From: Alloascoidea hylecoeti
Lineage: Eukaryota
DNA length: 64,000 bases
Assembly (NCBI GenBank): GCA_001600815.1
Contig: BCKZ01000011.1
Location: 351,622-415,621 of the forward strand
Direction: 5' to 3'
Of the stretch, positions 3,857-55,875 are shown in pieces (position 1 is the first letter of the stretch; each line of letters opens with the position of its first letter). Both the position numbers and the translations under genes were made by a program. The notes beneath the pieces were generated by a model. The model made no database searches. It worked only from the letters and a program-made list of their open reading frames with translations, and was not told the origin of the DNA.

Positions 3857-4603
3857 ATGACACGAAAATCTCGAAATATAATTGAAGAAAAAGAAGAAGA
3901 AGAGGATGAAGATTTACAACCACTTGATGATTATCGTGATAATAGGTCGCAATCGAATATTCTGAATACGAACGCTTACTTGGGTCCATTTGCATTTGTT
4001 AGGCCAATATTACTCCAGTATCCTGTACTAGTCGAATTAACAAAATATTCAGAGCAATTGGACATTCTAACTTCAGAGGTATCAAAACTACAATATCTCG
4101 TTAAATTCAAATTTAAAGCTCTAGTTGAATCCCACATTAATATTTCAACACACTTAAAATTTCAATTGCAAGACGAAACCCAAACTCAGCTGGAGAGTTC
4201 AAAAAGGGAAGAAAGGGAATTACTTTTACCGAATATTGGGCAAGTGGTTACACCTTTTAGTTCTGAAGAAGAAACTGAAGAAGAAAATGAACAACTTACT
4301 CCCGTCAATACTGGAAAAGGAAAAGGTAAAGAAACAATAAGTAATCCAGCTTCACATGTCATAAACTTTAACACAATGAAGAAATCGGCTCCTGCTACAT
4401 GGTACGGTGTAACTCCTGATATGAATGACAAAATGTTCAAAGGAAGAATGACATCAAGCAAACAGTTAGCTTATAATTGTTGGTGGGAGAGGAATAATGG
4501 ATGTCAATATTGTGGTGCTAAATTTGGAACATTGATTTTGTGTAACGAACACAAAATGGTCTGCAGATCCGTGCTCACACACCTTTGGAAACCACAGTTT
4601 TAA
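3857..4603 (+). CDS. Orphan 248-aa protein with acidic N-terminus and C-terminal C2HC-type zinc finger
   Basis: Open ATG-to-stop frame; C-x2-C-x12-H-x3-C pattern (CQYCGAKFGTLILCNEHKMVC). Confidence 0.55.
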   Translation: MTRKSRNIIEEKEEEEDEDLQPLDDYRDNRSQSNILNTNAYLGPFAFVRPILLQYPVLVELTKYSEQLDILTSEVSKLQYLVKFKFKALVESHINISTHLKFQLQDETQTQLESSKREERELLLPNIGQVVTPFSSEEETEEENEQLTPVNTGKGKGKETISNPASHVINFNTMKKSAPATWYGVTPDMNDKMFKGRMTSSKQLAYNCWWERNNGCQYCGAKFGTLILCNEHKMVCRSVLTHLWKPQF

Positions 4604-5701
4604 ATTTATTTATATCACCGAACATTCTATAAGTGAATAAGCTAATAATCTTAACTAAATAAAAATATAATTAGTATTATATCATTATTATATCTACTTA
4701 TAAAATCAGTAAAATATGATTGTATTGCTTATATGGTNTATTAGTTCATATAATTATTGCTAAGAAAATTTAAAATAAAAAGGCGCCAAATTCATTGACA
4801 AATTAATATCTTAGAAATCACTATCATTATTACTTACTTCAATGGCTGTTAATAAAATAGCGAATAATGTAGAAATTTTGTCTTTAATTTGATTGTAATT
4901 GGAAATGCTAAAATTAACAGAAATAGTTAAGTCTTAAGTTATGCCTACAGATGTTACATATTTTCAGCCACAATATTGACAATTCTTTTTATAACAATAA
5001 TTAATAGATCTANNNNNNNNNNNNNNNNNNNNNNNNNNNNNNNNNNNNNNNNNNNNNNNNNNNNNNNNNNNNNNNNNNNNNNNNNNNNNNNNNNNNNNNN
5101 NNNNNNNNNNNNAATGACAAAATGTTCAAAGGAAGAATGACATCAAGCAAACAGTTAGCTTATAATTGTTGGTGGGAGAGGAATAATGGATGTCAATATT
5201 GTGGTGCTAAATTTGGAACATTGATTTTGTGTAACGAACACAAAATGGTCTGCAGATCCGTGCTCACACACCTTTGGAAACCACAGTTTTAAATTTATTT
5301 ATATCACCGAACATTCTATAAGTGAATAAGCTAATAATCTTAACTAAATAAAAATATAATTAGTATTATATCATTATTATATCTACTTATAAAATCAGTA
5401 AAATATGATTGTATTGCTTATATGGTCTATTAGTTCATATAATTATTGCTAAGAAAATTTAAAATAAAAAGGCGCCAAATTCATTGACAAATTAATATCT
5501 TAGAAATCACTATCATTATTACTTACTTCAATGGCTGTTAATAAAATAGCGAATAATGTAGAAATTTTGTCTTTAATTTGATTGTAATTGGAAATGCTAA
5601 AATTAACAGAAATAGTTAAGTCTTAAGTTATGCCTACAGATGTTACATATTTTCAGCCACAATATTGACAATTCTTTTTATAACAATAATTAATAGATCT
5701 A
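4424..5701. repeat. Direct duplication 4424-5012 = 5113-5701 across a 100-N scaffold gap (probable contig-end overlap)
   Basis: Identical 589-bp sequence directly on both sides of the N-run 5013-5112. Confidence 0.85.
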
Positions 5702-5818
5702 ATATTATATCTATATATCGGATCAGTAAATACGATTATATGATTCCAAATACTGTAGAAATTTGTCCCTAATTTGATTGTACGGATGATGAAGCAACTC
5801 TGCTTTTTTTAAGAATTT

Positions 5819-7110
5819 TGTTAAAGTTCAAAGTGCCTGTTCTCCCAGTTGCGCCAAAAAGCCAATCGACTCTTTAGTGAACTGTTCTAAGAGTGTAATA
5901 TATATCCAACACACCCCCCAACCTTAGGCAGGTCACTTTACTAATAATCGCCATATCTGCTCAGCACTAGTACTAGGAACTTCCATATTTATGTCTTCTT
6001 CTCTCTCTTTACTCCAAATCTTAACCTCTAATGACTTGATAAATTTACAATTAAAGATAAATCTTCTACTAGGAATGTAACCTATACAATTCTTAAGAGT
6101 TTTGATCGTCCAGTTTACACCTTCACATGCATACAATGTTGAACCCTCATTTGCTTGAAGTATTAAAGATGTATTTCTTGACCAATTAATTACCTTCAAT
6201 TTGCTTTCCTTAGACAGAGAGATAAATCCAAAAGCTATCAACATATTCTTCAAACTTCTGAATCTCTCAAGTTCTGATTTTCTCGGAACAGTGTTTGTTT
6301 TGTCCCATCGTGAAGTGAGATCATTAAGACTTAATTTAATGAAATTTATACAATCTGCATAATTTGAGTAAGTATAAAGATCAGGTCCAATCCTCTTAGC
6401 ATCTATAGATATATCTCCTTCAGAAAATACTTCTGCCTTAATTTCAAAGTTTAACTCTTCAGGTCCTGGCATTTCATCCATAACAAGAGGTTTGATCTCT
6501 GCAATGTTATTAACAAATTCTTCACTATTTGCTGTCATATTTCCTTTCTGTTTTTTTTTACTCAAATTATGCAGATTGTATAAATTTCATTAAATTAAGT
6601 CTTAATGATCTCACTTCACGATGGGACAAAACAAACACTGTTCCGAGAAAATCAGAACTTGAGAGATTCAGAAGTTTGAAGAATATGTTGATAGCTTTTG
6701 GATTTATCTCTCTGTCTAAGGAAAGCAAATTGAAGGTAATTAATTGGTCAAGAAATACATCTTTAATACTTCAAGCAAATGAGGGTTCAACATTGTATGC
6801 ATGTGAAGGTGTAAACTGGACGATCAAAACTCTTAAGAATTGTATAGGTTACATTCCTAGTAGAAGATTTATCTTTAATTGTAAATTTATCAAGTCATTA
6901 GAGGTTAAGATTTGGAGTAAAGAGAGAGAAGAAGACATAAATATGGAAGTTCCTAGTACTAGTGCTGAGCAGATATGGCGATTATTAGTAAAGTGACCTG
7001 CCTAAGGTTGGGGGGTGTGTTGGATATATATTACACTCTTAGAACAGTTCACTAAAGAGTCGATTGGCTTTTTGGCGCAACTGGGAGAACAGGCACTTTG
7101 AACTTTAACA
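5819..7110. repeat. Long inverted repeat: arms 5819-6371 and 6558-7110 (553 bp each), 186-bp loop
   Basis: Arms are reverse complements; both translate to the same peptide (YSNYADC...IWRLLVK) and share the 3' flank. Confidence 0.93.
5933..6538 (-). CDS. Orphan 201-aa intronless protein, possibly of viral origin; its 3' portion is duplicated in inverted orientation
   Basis: ATG at 6538 (MTANSEEF...), stop at 5933; no recognisable fungal domain. Confidence 0.55.
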   Translation of the reverse strand: MTANSEEFVNNIAEIKPLVMDEMPGPEELNFEIKAEVFSEGDISIDAKRIGPDLYTYSNYADCINFIKLSLNDLTSRWDKTNTVPRKSELERFRSLKNMLIAFGFISLSKESKLKVINWSRNTSLILQANEGSTLYACEGVNWTIKTLKNCIGYIPSRRFIFNCKFIKSLEVKIWSKEREEDINMEVPSTSAEQIWRLLVK

Positions 7111-8769
7111 TGGTAGCGCCGCTACCATGTTGAATAGAATTAGATGAAGATTCTTGTTCGCTCATTGTTAATTGATGTCCTCAGATTGTATAAACACGTT
7201 GTTCTTAAACTCTTGGAAATTAAATATTAATATACTTATTATATTATATTTTTACGATACTTTNTAAAATTGTGGGAATTCCTCCATATTTATTATGGAA
7301 TCCCCGAAAACTATTTAGTCTATAAATTTGTTCCACCATGTTCTTGCATATAATCAACAAATTTATTAACTAGTTCTCTATTAAAAAAAAACTGGATCTA
7401 GATAAAAGAAAAATAAATATTCTTTTAAAATGTTTCGCTGTGAAATTATTAACAATATAACAATAGTAATAATAATAATGATAATGATATTGTTTTTTTA
7501 ATTATATAAGTTATATTAATAATGATAATAATCTGTTAAAAAATGATAAATAAAAAGAAATTAATGATATTCTATTACACTATCAATCTTATATTTGTAA
7601 TGGTATCCTCAAAATAATAAAAATGATTATAAACAAAATTATTATGAAATGAAATCTTTATTAAATTTATTGAATAATTTAATACCTAATATCGATTATT
7701 TCATATTTTTAACTAATAATTCTTCATCAAATTTAAAATTACTATACAATACTAACTATCATTATGAATTTATTAGATTTTCTCCTTAATAATATATTAA
7801 TAAATCAATCAATAAATTTAAAAAAATTATTGTTAAAACAATTAATTCATTGGTTATTTACAATTATTGGGTCTGAAATTAATTTTGATTCTTTTCGATA
7901 ATAATATACTTGGAAACAGATGTAATTTACTCTGGCCTTTTATTTCCCTGACGAAATCTACATATCTTATAAGTTAAATGAGTTCTATATGTGTAGCAAC
8001 AACGGTTAATATTAACTTTCTATCACTACCATAATTAGTAATTAAAATTAATTTTGTCATCACATATAGATAGATGGAGCTCCTACATTTAAGGTAAATA
8101 TAAATATGCATATTAATATACAAAAGAAATAAGTATATAACTTTAATTACCATTGAAATAAGTATATAAGGATGTAAAGAAATAAAATTTTAATAAAAAC
8201 ATATATCAGGCTTAGAATATTAATATAATTAATAGCATTGTTTAGTGTGTAAAATTTTTTATTTTATTAAATTCTCTGACAATAATGGCGGGTTGCAAAT
8301 TTCAACCTCCATAAATATCAGGATGTAATTGCGCAAGAAGAAAAGGATGAGGAATTACAGTTACTTGATGATGAAGATGGTAATTCGCCGCCATCGCCTA
8401 AAATGGGAGATTCGGAAGCGGATTCAATGGATTCTTTTGTAGAAAATGTTTTAGATCTGTTGGTTTTGTTCGGGCGCATACTTTGTTTTTGGAGGCATAA
8501 TCAAGAAACTTTATTATAAAGAATGTGTGTTTTCTTTTCCTTCCACTATTTAAAGTGAGAATTATAGAGTATATAAGAAAAATTGGGTAATAATATTAAT
8601 CGCTCCATATATATGTAAATGTCGATCAATAACTAGAATAATTTAATATTCTAATACTCCTTCTAACAAGATCTCAGTATTACACTACGTGTGAAAGAGA
8701 GGAGACAAAAGAATATAAACGAACCTGTTGACATTAACCTAAAAAGTAATAATAATTTTTATTATACTA

Positions 8770-9468
8770 AAGGGGTAGATCTGATAGAGGATAATTCGTT
8801 TGACAAATCTACGGCTATAACCCAACAAAGAAAACATGACGGAAAGAAATGACCAATTCGAGTTAAGAAGAGAGAAAAATCGCCAACAATATCAAAAAAA
8901 AAAGAGATTGAATAGATATGAAAAGAAAAATAAAAAGGATGAAAATCGAATTCCAATTAAATCTTCAAGTCTGTTTGGCATTTCCACCCCAAAGATTTGT
9001 CAAGACGATAAACAAATCACAACCATAATTTCTTTCTCAATTTAAAACTAATTTGATTCCTCCTTAATTTCTCACGACCACGACCACGACCACGACCATA
9101 ACCATCATTTCCTTCTCAACCTGATATTAATCTGGCTCCTCCCTCACATCCATTTGATTTTTTACAACAAGCACCACAATCACCATTTCCTTTGGAACAT
9201 AATAGTAATTTGATTCCTCCTTCACACCCACTTCCTATTTCACCACACCCACTGCGACCATTTCCTTCTTAATTTCTTCGTACAACCCCACTAATTGAAT
9301 ATACAGGAGGTCTTTTTTCCATATAACCATTCAACCGTGGCAAACCAAGTTCTATACCAACTTGATGATCCACATCAATTGCCTGCAGCTGTGAATAATG
9401 AGCTTGTTAGATTGAAGGTTCAAGATCTAGAGCCGCCACCATCATCATCTAAGACGGATGGGGAATAG
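8770..9468 (+). pseudogene. Decayed coding sequence (basic/charged segment followed by Pro-rich repeats)
   Basis: Coding-like fragments LRREKNRQQYQKKKRL, PSFPSQPDINLAPPSHP, NQVLYQLDDPHQLP interrupted by stops/frameshifts; repeated AATTTGATTCCTCCTT. Confidence 0.3.
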
Positions 9469-45814: not shown

Positions 45815-46288
45815 TTATCGGCTGCTGTTGCTGTTGTATGTTTAAAAAATCATTATTTATCACTTAATTATATACTTTAATTTTTAAAAAAAGAAGAGAT
45901 TAAATATTATATGGAGATTACATATTACTTTTCATTATTACATAAATTTGTCATTGATATTATGATGGAAGAAATTAAACGCTGTGATACATTCAAGGGA
46001 CTAACGTAAGAAAGATCAAATGAAAGCTCATCTGGTATTGTAATCATTGGACTATTGTTGGAAGATTTATCATTAAGACCGTGTGCAATAATATAATTGT
46101 TCACAAAACTTTGTGTTTGTAATAACTCATTAGGGAGATTTTTTAACCTTACAAATAATTTCCGATTAAAATATCTGAATAATTTAGTCTTCTAACTAGA
46201 AATTATTAAATTTAAGAAATCATCCCAAGAATTTAGCAGAAACAGTAGAAGCGGTGTGGATAATCATGAAACTTCGAAGACAGAAGCT

Positions 46289-46360
46289 TCCGATATAGTG
46301 TAACGGCTAGCACGGTCCGCTTTCACCGGGCAGTTCGGGGTTCGATTCCCCGTATCGGAG
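46289..46360 (+). tRNA. tRNA-Glu (anticodon TTC)
   Basis: TCCGATA/TATCGGA acceptor stem, GTCCG-CTTTCAC-CGGGC anticodon arm, GGTTCGATTCC T-loop, downstream T-run terminator. Confidence 0.97.
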
Positions 46361-47425
46361 TCTATTATTTTTTTGAATATTGTTTCTGTCATCTGGTATG
46401 CAGTGAATATCTCAGCTTTCAATTTCACTATTATACTTGATAAGTTGATATGAGAAAGAGGAGGAGCAAGAAATGCGATAAACATTTTCAAATTGAGCAA
46501 AGCCGTTTTTTTTTTTGAATTACTCCGGATTCGGATTCGGCGAAAGTAACTAATTCTGCTCAGCGAATCTGTTACTAGAGGTTGGATTTGATATGATTAG
46601 TGATTTGATTTCTTTTCTAAAACTGAGTAGAGTGAGTCTGTAATCGGTTGGGAGTTATTAAAAATGGATCCGACTCCGGGTTTAGGAGACCCAGGAGGAT
46701 AGTCCACAGTGGATCGAGTGCAAAAATCAAAATGAACATAATTATAAACAATCCCCACGGTCCTGTATACCGCCAAATATCAAATGCAATTGCAACCCTA
46801 CTTCAAGGCCTGGGGATAAGTATTTTTAAATCACATCATTTCAGAAGGAGAAGGCACATATACTGAACTATCGGAGATGTAAATGAGGTTGTGTCAGGGT
46901 ATCCGATCAGTTTGAAATCTCACTAACGTTGACAGGGTATACCATAGATTCACAGAGGTAAGGTAGACAATTGCAAACAACATTTAATATATAAAAGCTT
47001 ATACATCAAAAATAGCAACAATAATTGTCGAACCAGGGGCAGTTGATATTATAGTTTTGAGCAACTTTACGTTATACAACCTATTCAAATATATTCAGGT
47101 ACAGAGCATTGCAGTAATCCAAAACTTCCTGAGAGAACCGAGTAGATAATTGACGGATGTTAGTAAATTGATCCTTTACCAAAGAGATAATATGATACGA
47201 TCGATATTAATACGTAATTAAATATCAAATATTTTTATATAATAATATATTAGCTATAGGCATTATAAGCTTACACGGGTATATAATTTATTGGAGTATA
47301 TATTTGTATGCCATAGTAAAATATGTACCAAAGCTCATATCCTATTGCAGATACTCACTGGCTATCTACCAATTGGACCAATTCCGTTAACATAGGTGAC
47401 AGAAATTGCTGTAGCCGCATGATTA

Positions 47426-48463: not shown

Positions 48464-49435
48464 TTAGACTTTCTTTGAAACTTTAGCATTTTGAGCAGCC
48501 TTAAACTCTTCCCTCAACTCCAAAGCTTTTAATTTGTATACTTCCTTTTCTGATTCACTTAATGCTTTCCAATCTTCAGCAATACTTTTTATAAAAACTG
48601 ATGCCCTAACACCTTCTGATCCTTCTGATTTTTCCTTAATATAAAGACCAAAAGATGATGTAGGTTTAGGATGTTCAAAATAAGTACCAGTTTTTTTTTC
48701 ATAATCAAGTTTTTCTTTTAAATATTTTTCTTTTTCTTTTGCAGAATTTTTTTGATAAGATTCTTTTTCAAAATTTGATATATTTAACCATGATTTAGAT
48801 ATTTTTGAAAGTAAATCTTTAGTTGGTAATGATGGATTTTCATTTTTAAAAGTTTGATAAACATCTTTAATATATAAATTACTTGCAGAAAGTGGTCTTT
48901 TAGGTGGATTTATAACATATTTTGATTCATAAGCAATCAATTCCTCTTTATAGTTTTTAATGGCTTCATTAAATTTCAATTGGTATGGTTTCTTTTCAGA
49001 ATCAGATAAGGTTTTCCATTCTTGTGCTAAGATTGCAATGTTCTTTGAACCTTTCAAACCACCATTTTCATTCAATTTTTTCTTTAAATAAATTACATAT
49101 GAATTAGTTGGTCGTTTTGGTTTATCGGGAATCTCATCAACACCTAGAATATTTCTTAATGCTTCGTGATTCTTTTGTTCCCTAGCCAATACTTTTTTAT
49201 ACGATTCACGAAGTTCTTGAGATGCTTCCAACCAAGATTTTCTTGCATCCTTCTTATCAAAGGTATAAGTTTTGTCCTTATGTGTGGCAAAATAATCCTT
49301 TACGAAACATTGATAGGCTGTTGTTGGTTTAATGCTTTCAAATGTTTGAACGCGACATAGCGTAGTGGCAGTGGTAAATCTAGCAATATTATTAGGATTA
49401 GCCCGAATTGTAGGCAATAATAAATTTATCATCAT
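48464..49435 (-). CDS. Abf2/TFAM-like mitochondrial HMG-box protein with four boxes, paralog A
   Basis: Basic, acid-free N-terminus; four P(K)RP.S.Y/F...W..LS..EK..Y type repeats. Confidence 0.85.
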   Translation of the reverse strand: MMINLLLPTIRANPNNIARFTTATTLCRVQTFESIKPTTAYQCFVKDYFATHKDKTYTFDKKDARKSWLEASQELRESYKKVLAREQKNHEALRNILGVDEIPDKPKRPTNSYVIYLKKKLNENGGLKGSKNIAILAQEWKTLSDSEKKPYQLKFNEAIKNYKEELIAYESKYVINPPKRPLSASNLYIKDVYQTFKNENPSLPTKDLLSKISKSWLNISNFEKESYQKNSAKEKEKYLKEKLDYEKKTGTYFEHPKPTSSFGLYIKEKSEGSEGVRASVFIKSIAEDWKALSESEKEVYKLKALELREEFKAAQNAKVSKKV

Positions 49436-49657: not shown

Positions 49658-50635
49658 CTATGTTTCTTGGGCAGCTTTGAGATCTTTATATTCATCCCAC
49701 AATTTAACAGATTTTTCTTTATACACTGCTTTTTTAGCTGGACTTAATTCTTTCCAATCCTTAGCAATACTTCTTAAAGAATCTTGACGACTTTTACCTT
49801 CTAATTTTCCTGAATTTTCTTTAAAATAGAGACCAAAAGATGATGGAGGTCTAGAAAGTTCAGAGTAAGTACCTGTCTTTTTCTGATATTCTAGTTTTTC
49901 TTTCAAATACTTTTCAGTTTGTTTTTGAGCTTGTTTTTGATATGTTCCCTTTTCACGTTCTGAAAGATTTGCCCATGATTTAGAAATCTTGGTGAACAAT
50001 TCTGCACCTGATAATGATGGATTATCATCTTTGAAAGTTTGATAAGCATCCTTGATATATAAAGCATTTGCAGAAGGAGGAGGTTTAGGGATATTTATCA
50101 CATATTTGGAATTATATTCTGCCAATTCCTCTTTATAATTTTTTACAGCTTTCTCATATTTGGTTTTATATGGTTTCTTTCCTGAATTCGACAACTTTTT
50201 CCAAGCTTCAGCCAATGATACAATCTTTTGAGGACCTTTGACATCGGTTTCTTCAATTGATTTTTCTTTCACAAAAATAGCAAATGGACCACCTGGACTT
50301 TTTGGTTTAGCAGGAATCTCATTAACCCCCAATATATTTTTTAAAGCTTCGTGATTCCTTTTCTCTTTAGCCAATACTTTTTTATACGATTCACGAATCT
50401 CCTGAGATGCTTCAAACCATGATTTTCTTGCGTCTTTCTTATCGAAGCTAAGATTCTTATCCTTATGTGTGGCAAAATAATCCTTTACGAAACATTGATA
50501 GGCAGTTGTAGGCTTCGTGTTTTCAAAGGTTTGGAGACGAAACAATATATTACCAGTGGTGAATGAACGAGACCCAACATGAGTACTTGTTCTCATAGGT
50601 TTAACCAAAACAGCAGATTTTGATAAATTGAGCAT
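49658..50635 (-). CDS. Abf2/TFAM-like mitochondrial HMG-box protein with four boxes, paralog B
   Basis: Presequence-like N-terminus (MLNLSKSAVLVKPMR...RSF); collinear with paralog A. Confidence 0.85.
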   Translation of the reverse strand: MLNLSKSAVLVKPMRTSTHVGSRSFTTGNILFRLQTFENTKPTTAYQCFVKDYFATHKDKNLSFDKKDARKSWFEASQEIRESYKKVLAKEKRNHEALKNILGVNEIPAKPKSPGGPFAIFVKEKSIEETDVKGPQKIVSLAEAWKKLSNSGKKPYKTKYEKAVKNYKEELAEYNSKYVINIPKPPPSANALYIKDAYQTFKDDNPSLSGAELFTKISKSWANLSEREKGTYQKQAQKQTEKYLKEKLEYQKKTGTYSELSRPPSSFGLYFKENSGKLEGKSRQDSLRSIAKDWKELSPAKKAVYKEKSVKLWDEYKDLKAAQET

Positions 50636-51659: not shown

Positions 51660-52451
51660 ATGTATAATGGGAATCCGCCTAAATATGAGCTACAAAAATG
51701 TGATTGTGTTGGAAACATGAATGTCTGCTTTCCCCATGGTAGCAGTACGAATCATTTGGACGTAAACATTTTGAATTCAATGAAATTATCCAAAATTCAC
51801 GATCGCGAGTCAACTAATCGTAATACACAAGAAAACCAGCCATTAAAACATACAGAACCAAACAAGAGCAGTACAATAAATCCTGATATTACTAGTGCCG
51901 AGCAAAACCCGAAGGAAGCAGGGACAAACTTAAGCTTAAGCTTCTGCAGTAGTCCGTCACAATCATTAACATTTACAATGGACGAGGCGGCGTCATCCTC
52001 CCAACCCTCGCCGAATACCCAAACTAGTATACCTTCTACTAACAATACTAGTGTTCAAGAGCATATGTATTCTTGTTGCCATACTCCTCTCTCTTCTCCA
52101 AAATGTGGGAATATATGCCCTGATCTGTTACAACTGTTAATGGCGCATAATCAAAATCACCATACTATTAGAGGGCCACATCACCATCACTTAATTACAC
52201 GACGGAGGATTAAAGGAAAAAATACAATATCTTTAATACCGATGACTGAAGAACAGATTCAAAAATACACTAAACATAATAATATTAATCCTTGCAACTG
52301 TCAAAGTCATGATCATAAAAAAAATGTAAAAACACAAAATCAAGATCAAGAAGAAGAAAAAAATCTTTCCGTTAATTCAACATCTAGATCTATATCAAAT
52401 AATGAAAACATTACATGTACAAAAATTACAACTAATAATAACAATAATAAC

Positions 52452-52483
<32 letters not shown>

Positions 52484-53393
52484 GGATGATTTCCATCTTA
52501 AAGAACAAGAAATTTTAAAAAATAATTCACAAATTTCAAATGCAATTATATATGCAAATATATTCCCAAGATTTCATCTGGGTTCGATTTTATATTCTAG
52601 TTATAAGTCATTATCATCATCATCATCATCTAATAAAAATAATGAATCAAATCTAAATCCCATAATATCAAAAATCAAAAGTTTAAATCTATTAAATAAA
52701 TTAAATGGATTATTACAAATTAGAATAGAAAGAAAATATTTAACAGTATTAAATAACAACAATAATAATAATGAAAATGATAATTTAATATGGGGAACTA
52801 ATGTTTATAGTATTTATAGTGATATTATATTAGTTTTACAACATGCTGGATATTTATTTAAAGATAATAAAGGTAAAACAATAATTTCGAATATAAATTC
52901 AAATATAAATTCAAATTCAAATTCAAATTCATATAATATCAGTAACTCAAATTCAATTTTAAATCAAAAAAATTTACCAAAAGTTCAAATTGATGGCTTA
53001 AAATTTAAAGAAAATGGTGATTTAGTTGTAACGATTCAAATATTACCAAAATTAGAATCATATTTTGGTAGCTTTCAAAATAATTTAAAATCAAATTCTT
53101 TATCAATTAATTCAAATTATAATAATGTTTCATTCTGTATTTATAAATTATCATTCATACCCTTTGGTAAAGCTTTAGAAATTGGTCATGAAGCAAGAAA
53201 AAGAAGATTAAATGAAACTAATGAAATATTAGTTGAAGAAAATAATAGTCTTAATGATAGTAAGAACAATGATGAAAGTACTACAGCTATCCACAATAAA
53301 AATAATAATGAAAATACTGCGAAAAAATACAGGATTAAAACAAAGGATGAGAAGAAAATTGTACAAAATGTATTAAAGGATACGATAAGTTGA
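51660..53393 (+). CDS. Divergent Rxt3-domain protein
   Basis: FPRFHLGSILY, IWGTNVYSIYSDIILVLQHAG, DLVVTIQILPKLESYFGSFQNNLKS. Confidence 0.75.
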
Positions 53394-53685: not shown

Positions 53686-55875
53686 TCATTGACTAACAAC
53701 AAATTTTGGAGTTGTATTGTTATTATTATTATTATTTTCACTACCACCATGACCATCAAAATAATCACAATAACTATGATCTTTATCATTTATTTCACAT
53801 TCTTTTCTCATTTCAGCTAATTCATTTAATCTTTTTTTTTTATTAATATGACCCATACCTTCAATAATACTTGAATTTTTTAAAACAAATTTTAATCTTA
53901 AAATTTTAAAACTTACTCCATCATGTTTAATTAACCAATTTCTTGAATTTAAATTATTTCTAAAACATCCAATATAATTTTTTAATGTTGGTAAGATTTG
54001 AATTGTTACTATACAATCACCTGTATATTTATATTGTTTACCAATTATTTCAATTTCATTATCATTTTCATTGTCATTGCTATTTTCGTTATGTTTAATT
54101 TGTGTTGATTTATTTGTATCATTTTTCACTATTGATTTATTCTTTATTTTAATGCTAATTTTATTATTTTCTTTTGAATTTTCCTTTTCATTTCCTAATT
54201 CTTTACCTTTACCCTTTAAATTTATTTTTTCATTACTCTTATTAGCATCATTATCATTATTTAAAATTCCAGTATGAATTAAAGCACAAACTAAATCACT
54301 ATCATCAGTATAAATATCAGTGCCCCAAATCTCTCTATTTTTAACTTTATCATTATTCCTATTTAAATATTTCCTTTCAATATGAATTGATAAAGTCGAA
54401 TTAATAAACTGATTTAAATCTGAAGGTAATAAAGGAATTTCTTTTAATATTGTAAATAATAAATTTTCATCTTTATTTTTATCTTTATTATTATTAATAT
54501 TGATATTTTGATATATTTTATAATTTGAATTTGATGGTAATAATTTTATATATTCATGTGGTTTATATCTAATTGATCCTAAATGATACCTTGGAAATTT
54601 TGAAGCAATTAATAATGCTGAATTATTATTTACAATTATTTCATGTTTATGATGTTTTTTCTTTGGTTTAATAATTTGTTGTTCTTCAATTGATGATTCA
54701 TTTATTATTTGTTGATCAGAATTTATAGATTTATTAAATTTATTAATATATCCTGAAGTAGATTGAGTATTTTGATCAGTTAAAGTTGATGTTATATTAC
54801 GTTTCTTCAAATGTGGTGATGTCTGTTGTTGGGTTTGGGTTTGCTGGGTTGGTAAAATTACTGATTGTTGTTGTTGTTGTTGTTGATATTGATGGTAAGC
54901 TTGATTTTGATTTTGATTTTGATTTTGATTTTGATTTTGATTTTGATTTTGATTTTGGTTTTGATTTTGGTTTTGGTTTTGGTTTTGAGTATCTTGTGGA
55001 TCTTTTATCGTAATAGATGATCTGAAAGCGTTTGGAATTGATTGACTTTGTTGATGCCTGTCGATCATATCATCAAAGGGCATTGATGGTAAATGATGAG
55101 CATTTCTATTTCTGTCAATATTTCGATTTCGTTTTTCAGTTTCAATTTCATTATTAGTAATAGCGGTACTCACCGTAAGAGGGGATGAAGACGATGATAA
55201 AATAATCGGAGGTTGTAACGAAGTTTTATGGTGGTGATGGTGTTGATGTCCCATGTGAGGCGTATTGTTTGGAATTGAGTTACTATGATGATGTGAGATC
55301 CCTGTAGAAGAAGAATTTCTTTCCCGATGAGGTTTTTCACGATGAAGTTGTTCAGAACCAGAACCACCAGAATTAACTCTTTTGGGTCCTATCTGCTGTG
55401 CCAGAATTGGTGAAGATGAATTTGGAGATCCAGAGTTGATGGTATTCTGTATGAACCCTAGACTCGGCAAATGAATCCCGACACCGCTAGAAGCTGAGGA
55501 TGGTTGTGAAGTCCCGCTGTAGTTTCCATAGTTTGTGTTTGTTGGTCTGGAATATATCAGATTTGGTGAATAGCTGCTTTGACTCGAAGGATTTGTAGCA
55601 GGGACAGGAACAGGAACAGGAACAGGGGGCGAGGAAATCGTTGTAATCAAGCCATTAATCGGACTTACACCATTTGAGGAAATATGATTATTCTGAATTT
55701 GGTTTTGATTTTTATTCTGGCTTTGATTTGAGCCGATTGAAGATATTGAAGATATGGAGGAAATGGGTGGAAGCCGTATCGATTGTTTATGACCTTGTTG
55801 TACCTGTGTCCTATTTGTTGAAGAAGCGGAAAAGGAGGAAATATGAGGAAGATTTATTCCATTTTGATCGGACAT
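53686..55875 (-). CDS. RXT3: Rpd3L histone deacetylase complex subunit
   Basis: Canonical IWGTDIYTDDSDLVCALIHTG, ILPTL.NY.G.FRN..NSRNW...HDGVSF; QN hexamer repeat at about 54901-54987. Confidence 0.88.
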   Translation of the reverse strand: MSDQNGINLPHISSFSASSTNRTQVQQGHKQSIRLPPISSISSISSIGSNQSQNKNQNQIQNNHISSNGVSPINGLITTISSPPVPVPVPVPATNPSSQSSYSPNLIYSRPTNTNYGNYSGTSQPSSASSGVGIHLPSLGFIQNTINSGSPNSSSPILAQQIGPKRVNSGGSGSEQLHREKPHRERNSSSTGISHHHSNSIPNNTPHMGHQHHHHHKTSLQPPIILSSSSSPLTVSTAITNNEIETEKRNRNIDRNRNAHHLPSMPFDDMIDRHQQSQSIPNAFRSSITIKDPQDTQNQNQNQNQNQNQNQNQNQNQNQNQNQNQAYHQYQQQQQQQSVILPTQQTQTQQQTSPHLKKRNITSTLTDQNTQSTSGYINKFNKSINSDQQIINESSIEEQQIIKPKKKHHKHEIIVNNNSALLIASKFPRYHLGSIRYKPHEYIKLLPSNSNYKIYQNININNNKDKNKDENLLFTILKEIPLLPSDLNQFINSTLSIHIERKYLNRNNDKVKNREIWGTDIYTDDSDLVCALIHTGILNNDNDANKSNEKINLKGKGKELGNEKENSKENNKISIKIKNKSIVKNDTNKSTQIKHNENSNDNENDNEIEIIGKQYKYTGDCIVTIQILPTLKNYIGCFRNNLNSRNWLIKHDGVSFKILRLKFVLKNSSIIEGMGHINKKKRLNELAEMRKECEINDKDHSYCDYFDGHGGSENNNNNNNTTPKFVVSQ

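Follow-up and report, generated by a model that had tools for sequence, protein, structure and literature searches.

Drinnenberg et al. (2009) reportedly found palindromic loci in the budding yeast Naumovozyma castellii, whose long hairpin transcripts give rise to transposon-directed small interfering RNAs (siRNAs). In some budding yeasts transposons are countered by a non-canonical Dicer and Argonaute, and RNA interference (RNAi) has been lost in others, as outlined in PMC7763443. In the retroviral precedent described in the literature, the 3′ end of nascent minus-strand DNA can fold back and be extended on its own strand. The long terminal repeat (LTR) retrotransposon Ty1 of Saccharomyces cerevisiae duplicates 5 bp of its target site upon insertion. 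Here we analyzed a stretch of 64,000 nucleotides from Alloascoidea hylecoeti (NCBI GenBank assembly GCA_001600815.1, contig BCKZ01000011.1, positions 351,622 to 415,621 of the forward strand), referred to as the window and numbered from its first letter, which contains a perfect fold-back at 5819-7110. We give about an even chance to the reading that this fold-back is the core of one aberrant LTR-retrotransposon insertion, in which a minus-strand complementary DNA (cDNA) snapped back, was copied on itself, then primed on another element, and entered the genome in a single step.

The fold-back and its inner junctions

The two arms of the inverted repeat are paired at 553 of 553 positions, with no mismatch. 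The first mismatch occurs at 6372/6557, where the stem gives way to a loop of 186 nt, and the flanks beyond 5819 and 7110 are unpaired. The first-pass annotation of this stretch, which was made from the letters alone, had described the arms as exact reverse complements and had placed the 5′ end of an open reading frame (ORF) of 201 amino acids in the 186-bp loop. Both descriptions are correct, and the first 55 codons of the ORF were found in the loop. The next-longest inverted repeat in the 64-kb window has only 62 nt at 73%, and chance can therefore be excluded for a palindrome of 553 bp.

The inner junctions were evaluated with De Bruijn contigs (k = 31), not raw reads, of four public sequencing runs, which were compared with 5113-7263. 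Two of the runs, X1 and X2, are from the same organism and from two studies; the other two, X3 and X5, are wood-decay metagenomes. A contig of 246 nt covering 6342-6587, which comprises the loop and 30 nt of each arm, was found with no differences in three of the four runs (X1, X2, and X3), that is, in three studies. An unbranched contig of 456 nt, corresponding to 5916-6371 and equally to 6558-7013 of the arms, was found in the same three runs. The loop contig reaches 30 letters past each inner junction; the bridging rule is 31 letters, and 30 is what is expected at a palindrome of a k = 31 unitig. From either end the loop contig passes into the one arm contig, and the sole possible walk in the k = 31 graph is arm, loop, arm. 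The depths of arm and loop were 111.5 and 67.2 in X1, and 15.9 and 6.7 in X2, near the expected doubling. Since the loop and arm contigs recur in three of the four runs from three studies, the inner junctions are not an assembly artefact but genuine DNA present in all three studies. X1 may be the data set behind the assembly of the window, and for this reason it is not independent.

It is therefore highly improbable that the fold-back is an assembly or amplification artefact and absent from the organism. What prompts such a suspicion is the state of the assembly nearby, where the first-pass annotation had correctly noticed a gap and stray Ns. The Ns of the window are found only at 4738, 5013-5112, and 7264, all of them within 2.5 kb of the locus; the 589 bp left of the 100-N gap (4424-5012) recur exactly after it at 5113-5701, save for an N at 4738 vs. 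a C at 5427; and the public contigs depart from the assembly at the 5701/5702 join. However, the loop contig with both of its inverted 30-nt ends and the unbranched arm contig were recovered from three studies, X5 also crosses 6557/6558 (with 12 letters only), and an artefact of one assembly cannot show up in independent k-mer graphs. The artefact reading is thus largely refuted for the inner junctions. Two junctions had been named in the first-pass annotation as those to be checked for support: the contigs of X1, X2, and X3 support 6557/6558, whereas 7110/7111, which lies in a high-copy repeat, was not verified. A suspicious perfect palindrome beside assembly gaps can hence be real, and the topology of k-mer graphs in independent runs is enough to establish it.

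The duplication of 4424-5012 at 5113-5701 looks like an unmerged contig overlap. As a result of it, the gene at 3857-4603 is partly doubled as an ORF of 56 amino acids at 5122-5292. At 5427, where the assembly has C, both X1 and X2 read T, and the difference between 4738 and 5427 is perhaps a heterozygous site. Just left of the insertion, at 5703-5782, three short stretches resemble parts of 4686-4897 at 78–88% identity in the same order; to judge from this resemblance, they look like a diverged and shortened copy of the upstream intergenic region.

Retroelement parts and the proposed origin

Read on the minus strand, the insertion at 5819-7359 (1,541 bp) consists of a first LTR (LTR2), a primer-binding site, an inverted block made of a second kind of LTR (LTR1), a polypurine tract and the 3′ part of the ORF, then a 19-nt leader with the full ORF, the polypurine tract again, and LTR1. 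The coordinates of these parts are given in Table 1. The unit is flanked on both sides by AATTT. At this base composition the probability of any 5-mer match is 0.002, and there was no freedom in the choice of the boundary, because 7359 is the only CAACA terminus in 7128-7900. No target-site duplication was found for LTR2 alone, for each LTR1 copy alone, for the palindrome alone, or for any other pairing of LTR ends. Integration in one step is suggested by the fact that the 5-bp duplication belongs only to the composite 5819-7359, which looks like one integrated piece with a U3 end from LTR2 and a U5 end from LTR1.

Table 1. Features of the fold-back locus in the window (positions are those of the window; a dot marks features without strand)
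Feature	Position	Strand	Remarks
Target-site duplication, left copy AATTT	5814..5818	.	Identical to 7360-7364; flank uncovered by public contigs
Left arm of palindrome	5819..6371	.	553 bp; 456-nt contig over 5916-6371 in X2 and X3
LTR1, 93 nt	5819..5911	-	TGTTGG...TTTAACA in forward sense; 3′ LTR of the ORF-bearing unit; outer end of left arm
Polypurine tract AAGGTTGGGGGGTG	7004-7017 (right arm); exact complement 5912..5925 (left arm)	- (left arm)	Abuts the start of LTR1
Intact ORF, 201 amino acids	5933..6538	-	Three-member lineage-restricted family; codon 56 spans the arm boundary
Loop	6372..6557	.	186 nt: 19-nt leader and ORF codons 1-55 (minus strand)
Right arm of palindrome	6558..7110	.	ORF codons 57-201, polypurine tract and LTR1, all in plus-strand sense; 456-nt contig 6558-7013 in X1
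LTR1, second copy	7018..7110	+	Outer end of right arm; flanked by polypurine tract (left) and primer-binding site (right)
Short Gag-like ORF, 37 codons	7052..7165	-	Starts in LTR2, crosses the primer-binding site, stops in inverted LTR1
Perfect palindrome, 17 nt	7111..7127	.	Two initiator-tRNA primer-binding sites head to head; plus strand begins TGGTAGCGCC
LTR2, 232-nt Ty1-like LTR	7128..7359	-	TGTTGA...TCAACA; primer-binding site after it in minus-strand sense
Target-site duplication, right copy AATTT	7360..7364	.	Directly after LTR2 end at 7359

LTR1 and LTR2 both have TG...CA termini; of their first 12 nt they share 10, and of their last 6 nt they share 5. Beyond the termini, no likeness was found between them by global alignment or self-blast, and the possibility that LTR1 is a shortened LTR2 was rejected on this ground. 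Both are abundant repeats, as marked by summed contig depth, which is not a copy number. For LTR1 this depth was 569- to 723-fold that of neighbouring single-copy sequence in X1, X2, and X3: over 5833-5904 it rose from about 79 to 53,577 in X1, from 8.4 to 6,047 in X2, and from 10.9 to 6,202 in X3, and it behaved alike over 7057-7128. For LTR2, depths of 7,465 (X1), 870 (X2), and 996 (X3) were found over 7129-7200, roughly 90- to 105-fold single copy, and its part within the compared stretch (7128-7263) has a summed depth of roughly 100-fold. The loose ends of the contigs put repeat boundaries at 5818, 5911, 7018, 7110/7111, and 7128, and the outer junctions of the fold-back, 5818/5819 and 7110/7111, sit in high-copy repeats.

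Directly after LTR1, at 7111-7120, we identified the TGTAGCGCC-type 10-mer TGGTAGCGCC, which equals nt 335-344 of Ty1-H3. This 10-mer opens a Ty1-H3 primer that is placed at nt 335 in PMC7055915, and nt 335-344 of Ty1 were mutated, according to PMC5454406, to stop annealing of the initiator methionine transfer RNA (tRNAiMet) with the GAG protein kept. Because mutations at nt 335-344 block this annealing, TGGTAGCGCC corresponds to the Ty1-type primer-binding site inside GAG. The match of the sequence after LTR1 to initiator tRNA presumably runs to 13 nt. The inverted copy of the site after LTR2 matches at 8 nt. As judged from contig loose ends, other copies of LTR2 share sequence up to 7116, and other copies of LTR1 up to 7110 or 7115. 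An ATG on the minus strand at 7165 lies in LTR2, and its frame reads MSEQESSSNSIQHGSGAT through the primer-binding site; on its letters, this putative ORF is laid out like the start of Ty1 GAG.

Several features of an LTR insertion, namely TG...CA termini, a primer-binding site, a polypurine tract, and a short target-site duplication, are present. Those of an autonomous element are not: there is no gag-pol, the ORF of 201 amino acids has no Pfam family, and beyond it there is only the 37-codon Gag-like start. At best, 5819-7359 is a non-autonomous or aberrant element copy. The first-pass annotation had linked the ORF to a virus or selfish gene and had suggested that the locus may be a heritable silencing memory. 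Derivation from a selfish element is supported by the LTR-retrotransposon parts and the ORF linked to them. As for a silencing memory, the anatomy points instead to an aberrant product of retrotransposition, given that the arms end at LTR termini and that a primer-binding site, a polypurine tract, and a 5-bp duplication are present.

In X5, a contig of 328 nt that maps on 5843-5963 and 7062-7122 contains part of LTR1 and then 52 nt in common with the window (to 5963), followed by 149 nt of other sequence, the primer-binding site, and LTR1 again. The order of this short element is LTR1, primer-binding site, about 200 nt, polypurine tract, LTR1, or roughly 400 nt in all, as read from this one contig of a related organism. 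By its composition it resembles a miniature LTR element of the TRIM type, here in a budding yeast. A tRNA scan of the 64-kb window found tRNA-Glu at 46288-46362 and no tRNA-Met gene, and an Rfam scan of 5113-8000 returned two sub-threshold chance matches only (20 bits vs. a gathering score of 43). A metagenome scan with a 20-nt pattern made of the LTR1 end and the primer-binding site returned eight loci, all with the same unrelated flanks. These eight loci were rejected as relatives and taken for chance matches; blastn of LTR1, LTR2, and the ORF region against them found no match at E ≤ 0.01.

The snap-back reading proposes the following course. In a virus-like particle, minus-strand cDNA primed by initiator tRNA would have copied LTR1, the polypurine tract, and the ORF-bearing RNA, which would be equal to the plus strand from 5819. 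It would have stopped near 6557-6559, 19–21 nt upstream of the ATG of the ORF in a run of T, a place that would fit run-off at the RNA 5′ end. The 3′ end of the cDNA would then have snapped back, held by a 2-nt TT/AA match (6558-6559 with 6370-6371), and been extended along its own strand, which would give the right arm. Self-copying would have gone on through LTR1 into the still-attached tRNA primer, and a copy of the primer-binding site would be the outcome. Over its last 8 nt, the 3′ end so made would pair perfectly with the near-palindromic primer site of an LTR2 plus-strand DNA and could have primed there; copying to the U3 end of LTR2 would then yield the inverted LTR2. The duplex, with legitimate U3 and U5 ends, would have been inserted by integrase with a 5-bp duplication. 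The parental copy of the ORF was perhaps lost by LTR-LTR recombination, which would be impossible for the inverted copy, but this is speculation. In such a course every boundary would sit where reverse transcriptase naturally switches template, that is, at the RNA 5′ end, the tRNA primer, and the primer-binding site.

The same junctions can be approached from the side of DNA-level rearrangement, which we regard as a possible but rather unlikely origin. Two or more LTR elements would have been inserted near each other, and an inverted duplication would have followed, through a template switch in replication or through a break just upstream of the ORF that was mended by fold-back repair; the identity of the arms would be recent or would have been kept by arm-to-arm gene conversion. 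Fold-back repair does generate repeat-flanked palindromes in yeast. At the inner junctions the sequence is ordinary and offers only the 2-nt TT/AA match, which suits any polymerase, and LTR1 with the primer-binding site is native in the X5 contig, so that the right arm could derive from a tandem element. However, both arm ends fall exactly on an LTR terminus, as would not be expected of a random breakpoint. Moreover, the target-site duplication belongs to the composite unit and to none of its parts, and the head-to-head junction of primer-binding sites would need a further unrelated event.

Several observations weigh against the snap-back insertion. First, its ends are unlike LTRs, of 232 nt (LTR2) and 93 nt (LTR1), instead of like LTRs in direct orientation, and the copies of LTR1 are inverted. 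Unlike LTRs are never made by canonical reverse transcription, and the model therefore needs three template switches. Second, LTR1 and the primer-binding site are native in the X5 element, and the copy of this site alone is therefore no proof of tRNA copying. Third, no full-length gag-pol element was seen. The depth of the loop is about that of the flanks and the loop contig is unbranched, and no parental copy of the ORF is visible. In X3 the depths of arm and loop, 11.5 and 10.4, do not show the ratio of 2.

Other such points concern the outer junctions. The contig that matches 5113-5701 (2,112–2,722 nt; three of the four runs, X1, X2, and X3) goes on for another 1,347–1,957 nt, over which it does not resemble 5702-7263. 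The left flank 5702-5818 is uncovered in X1 and X2 (5702-5760 without cover). Since 5702-5818 is uncovered in these two runs and the contigs diverge after 5701, the left junction and the left AATTT rest on the assembly. The join at 5701/5702 may be misassembled, and it is doubtful where the locus lies with respect to the upstream gene. Among the contigs shown, 7110/7111 is crossed only by a 60-nt contig of X1 (depth 12.5, two other letters) and by one contig of X5.

In a limited literature search, no integrated natural snap-back cDNA was found by title or abstract. The snap-back reading offers a concrete mechanism by which retroelements could give rise to long hairpin loci in a single step. 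Should small RNAs be found, the locus would connect aberrant reverse transcription with the origin of hairpin-RNA genes. If there are none, it would be a clear case, from nature, of a snap-back cDNA that was integrated, and it would mark a short-LTR, possibly TRIM-like, element family in a budding yeast.

Coding and hairpin-RNA potential

An exhaustive search of 1.84 billion representative proteins with the ORF of 201 amino acids found two matches, P0001 (85% identity, 191 amino acids) and P0002 (43% identity, 180 amino acids), both of which are encoded on NCBI contigs of about 3.9 kb. In word-indexed searches, 1 of 91 and 2 of 1,804 candidates matched. The alignment of the three members has 64 invariant columns, including Cys, Trp, and Pro positions, and because of these shared columns the family looks protein-coding. 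The first-pass annotation had suggested that the locus may not be a protein-coding gene, which disagrees with this result. It had also called the ORF an orphan, a term that fits the absence of a Pfam match but not the presence of two homologues. No Pfam family was found in the ORF, P0001, or P0002, and the ESM Atlas gave no usable match for the ORF. The AlphaFold2 model, built on the three-row alignment, was poor (mean pLDDT 42.4). A metagenome scan with a protein pattern matched 133 stretches, none of which was confirmed as a relative.

P0002 begins with MSEQESTSNSIQH. Of its first 13 residues, 12 are the same as in the LTR2-coded Gag-like peptide of the window, while the rest is only 43% identical to the ORF. 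By this likeness, the second family member appears to be fused to the same kind of LTR. The form of P0002 might suggest an intron between the start codon of LTR2 and the ORF; this was considered and rejected, as no canonical splice signals were seen after 7127. Longer or fused forms of the ORF were found in none of 306 candidates at E ≤ 10, and the Gag-like start is therefore not tied to a gag-pol protein. The homology with P0001 stops at residue 193 (codon 5960-5962), the point from which the window has sequence in common with the X5 short element (5963), and the last eight codons of the ORF are probably from generic LTR1-element sequence. The ORF family seems either to ride in these elements or to be repeatedly captured by them. 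Normal expression of this copy is doubtful, because it has only 19 nt of upstream sequence of its own.

The predicted fold of a minus-strand transcript is a single stem of 553 bp with a minimum free energy of −1037 kcal/mol, in agreement with the first-pass annotation, which had expected about 550 bp of double-stranded RNA (dsRNA). Both arms would be part of a transcript driven by LTR2, which would form this dsRNA. Its stem would carry 93 nt of the very abundant LTR1 family and so would have many potential targets.

Whatever its origin, the locus might have been kept as a hairpin-RNA gene, in which a transcript from LTR2 would be diced to siRNAs that silence LTR1 elements and copies of the ORF. 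This is compatible with a snap-back origin, and we consider it improbable. It is favoured by the potential for 553 bp of perfect dsRNA from perfectly identical arms, by the position of the hairpin downstream of LTR2 with its Gag-type start and so presumably of a promoter, by the presence in the arms of 93 nt of a repeat with a summed depth of hundreds-fold, and by the occurrence of the structure in three studies, including an environmental sample. A precedent is the Nmy gene of Drosophila simulans, as presented in PMC2062475. Some budding yeasts, according to PMC7763443, keep RNAi against transposons, but the same source describes many that lack it. Perfect arms are moreover equally expected of a recent accident. 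No Dicer or Argonaute domain was found in the 20 ORFs of at least 200 amino acids in the 64-kb window, a result that says little.

Joining both ideas, one snap-back accident might have made, in a single integration, a ready-made hairpin-RNA gene, with an LTR promoter driving 553 bp of perfect dsRNA that carries the LTR of the most abundant retroelement family of the genome and an element-linked ORF. We give this combined scenario a small chance. If it is true and the yeast has RNAi, the locus would be a silencer of transposons made by transposons, and self-priming of reverse transcriptase would be a general one-step route to hairpin silencing memories of selfish elements.

Elsewhere in the window, two neighbouring ORFs on the minus strand, at 48464-49435 (323 amino acids) and 49658-50635 (325 amino acids), each have an HMG-box domain and are apparently a tandem gene pair. 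Two adjacent convergent ORFs, at 51660-53393 (plus strand) and 53686-55875 (minus strand), each have an Rxt3 domain. At 9010-9272 a direct repeat of about 78 nt occurs in three to four diverged copies with 71–77% identity, and these may be a coding repeat on the minus strand.

Comparison with known systems

The insertion shares with Ty1 of S. cerevisiae the TG...CA termini of its LTRs, an identical 10-nt primer-binding site immediately following the LTR, a Gag-type ORF with its start in the LTR that continues across this site, a polypurine tract before the 3′ LTR, and a target-site duplication of 5 bp. It differs from Ty1 in that its two LTRs, of 232 nt and 93 nt, are from different families, in that it has no gag-pol, and in that its interior is an inverted copy of itself together with the unrelated ORF of 201 amino acids. 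This likeness was judged by features, not by comparison of LTR sequences.

With TRIM elements it shares the shortness of LTR1, which has only 93 nt, and the element of roughly 400 nt in the X5 contig leaves no room for genes. TRIM elements have LTRs of about 100–250 bp, a primer-binding site, and a polypurine tract, lack genes, and stay below 1 kb in total, and the 328-nt contig of X5 is compatible with this. This likeness rests on one contig of a related organism, whereas the copy in the window carries the ORF of 201 amino acids.

The step proposed for the arms is the same as in self-primed minus-strand DNA of retroviruses, in which, in the cases described, the 3′ end folds back and extends on its own strand. 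The known retroviral cases, however, are dead-end products of strong-stop DNA, mostly in vitro, whereas the product here would be 1.3 kb long and would have gained a second LTR, been integrated, and been inherited. The likeness to the loci reported for Naumovozyma castellii is that of a long hairpin in a budding yeast, which here is a predicted one.

The closest documented parallel is Nmy of Drosophila simulans. As described in PMC2062475, it carries inverted repeats that are 345–380 bp long and nearly perfect, and it arose by retrotransposition from the distorter that it suppresses. It differs from the present locus in its non-LTR, target-primed route and in its second repeat, which is thought to be a later duplication, and its siRNA function is genetically supported.

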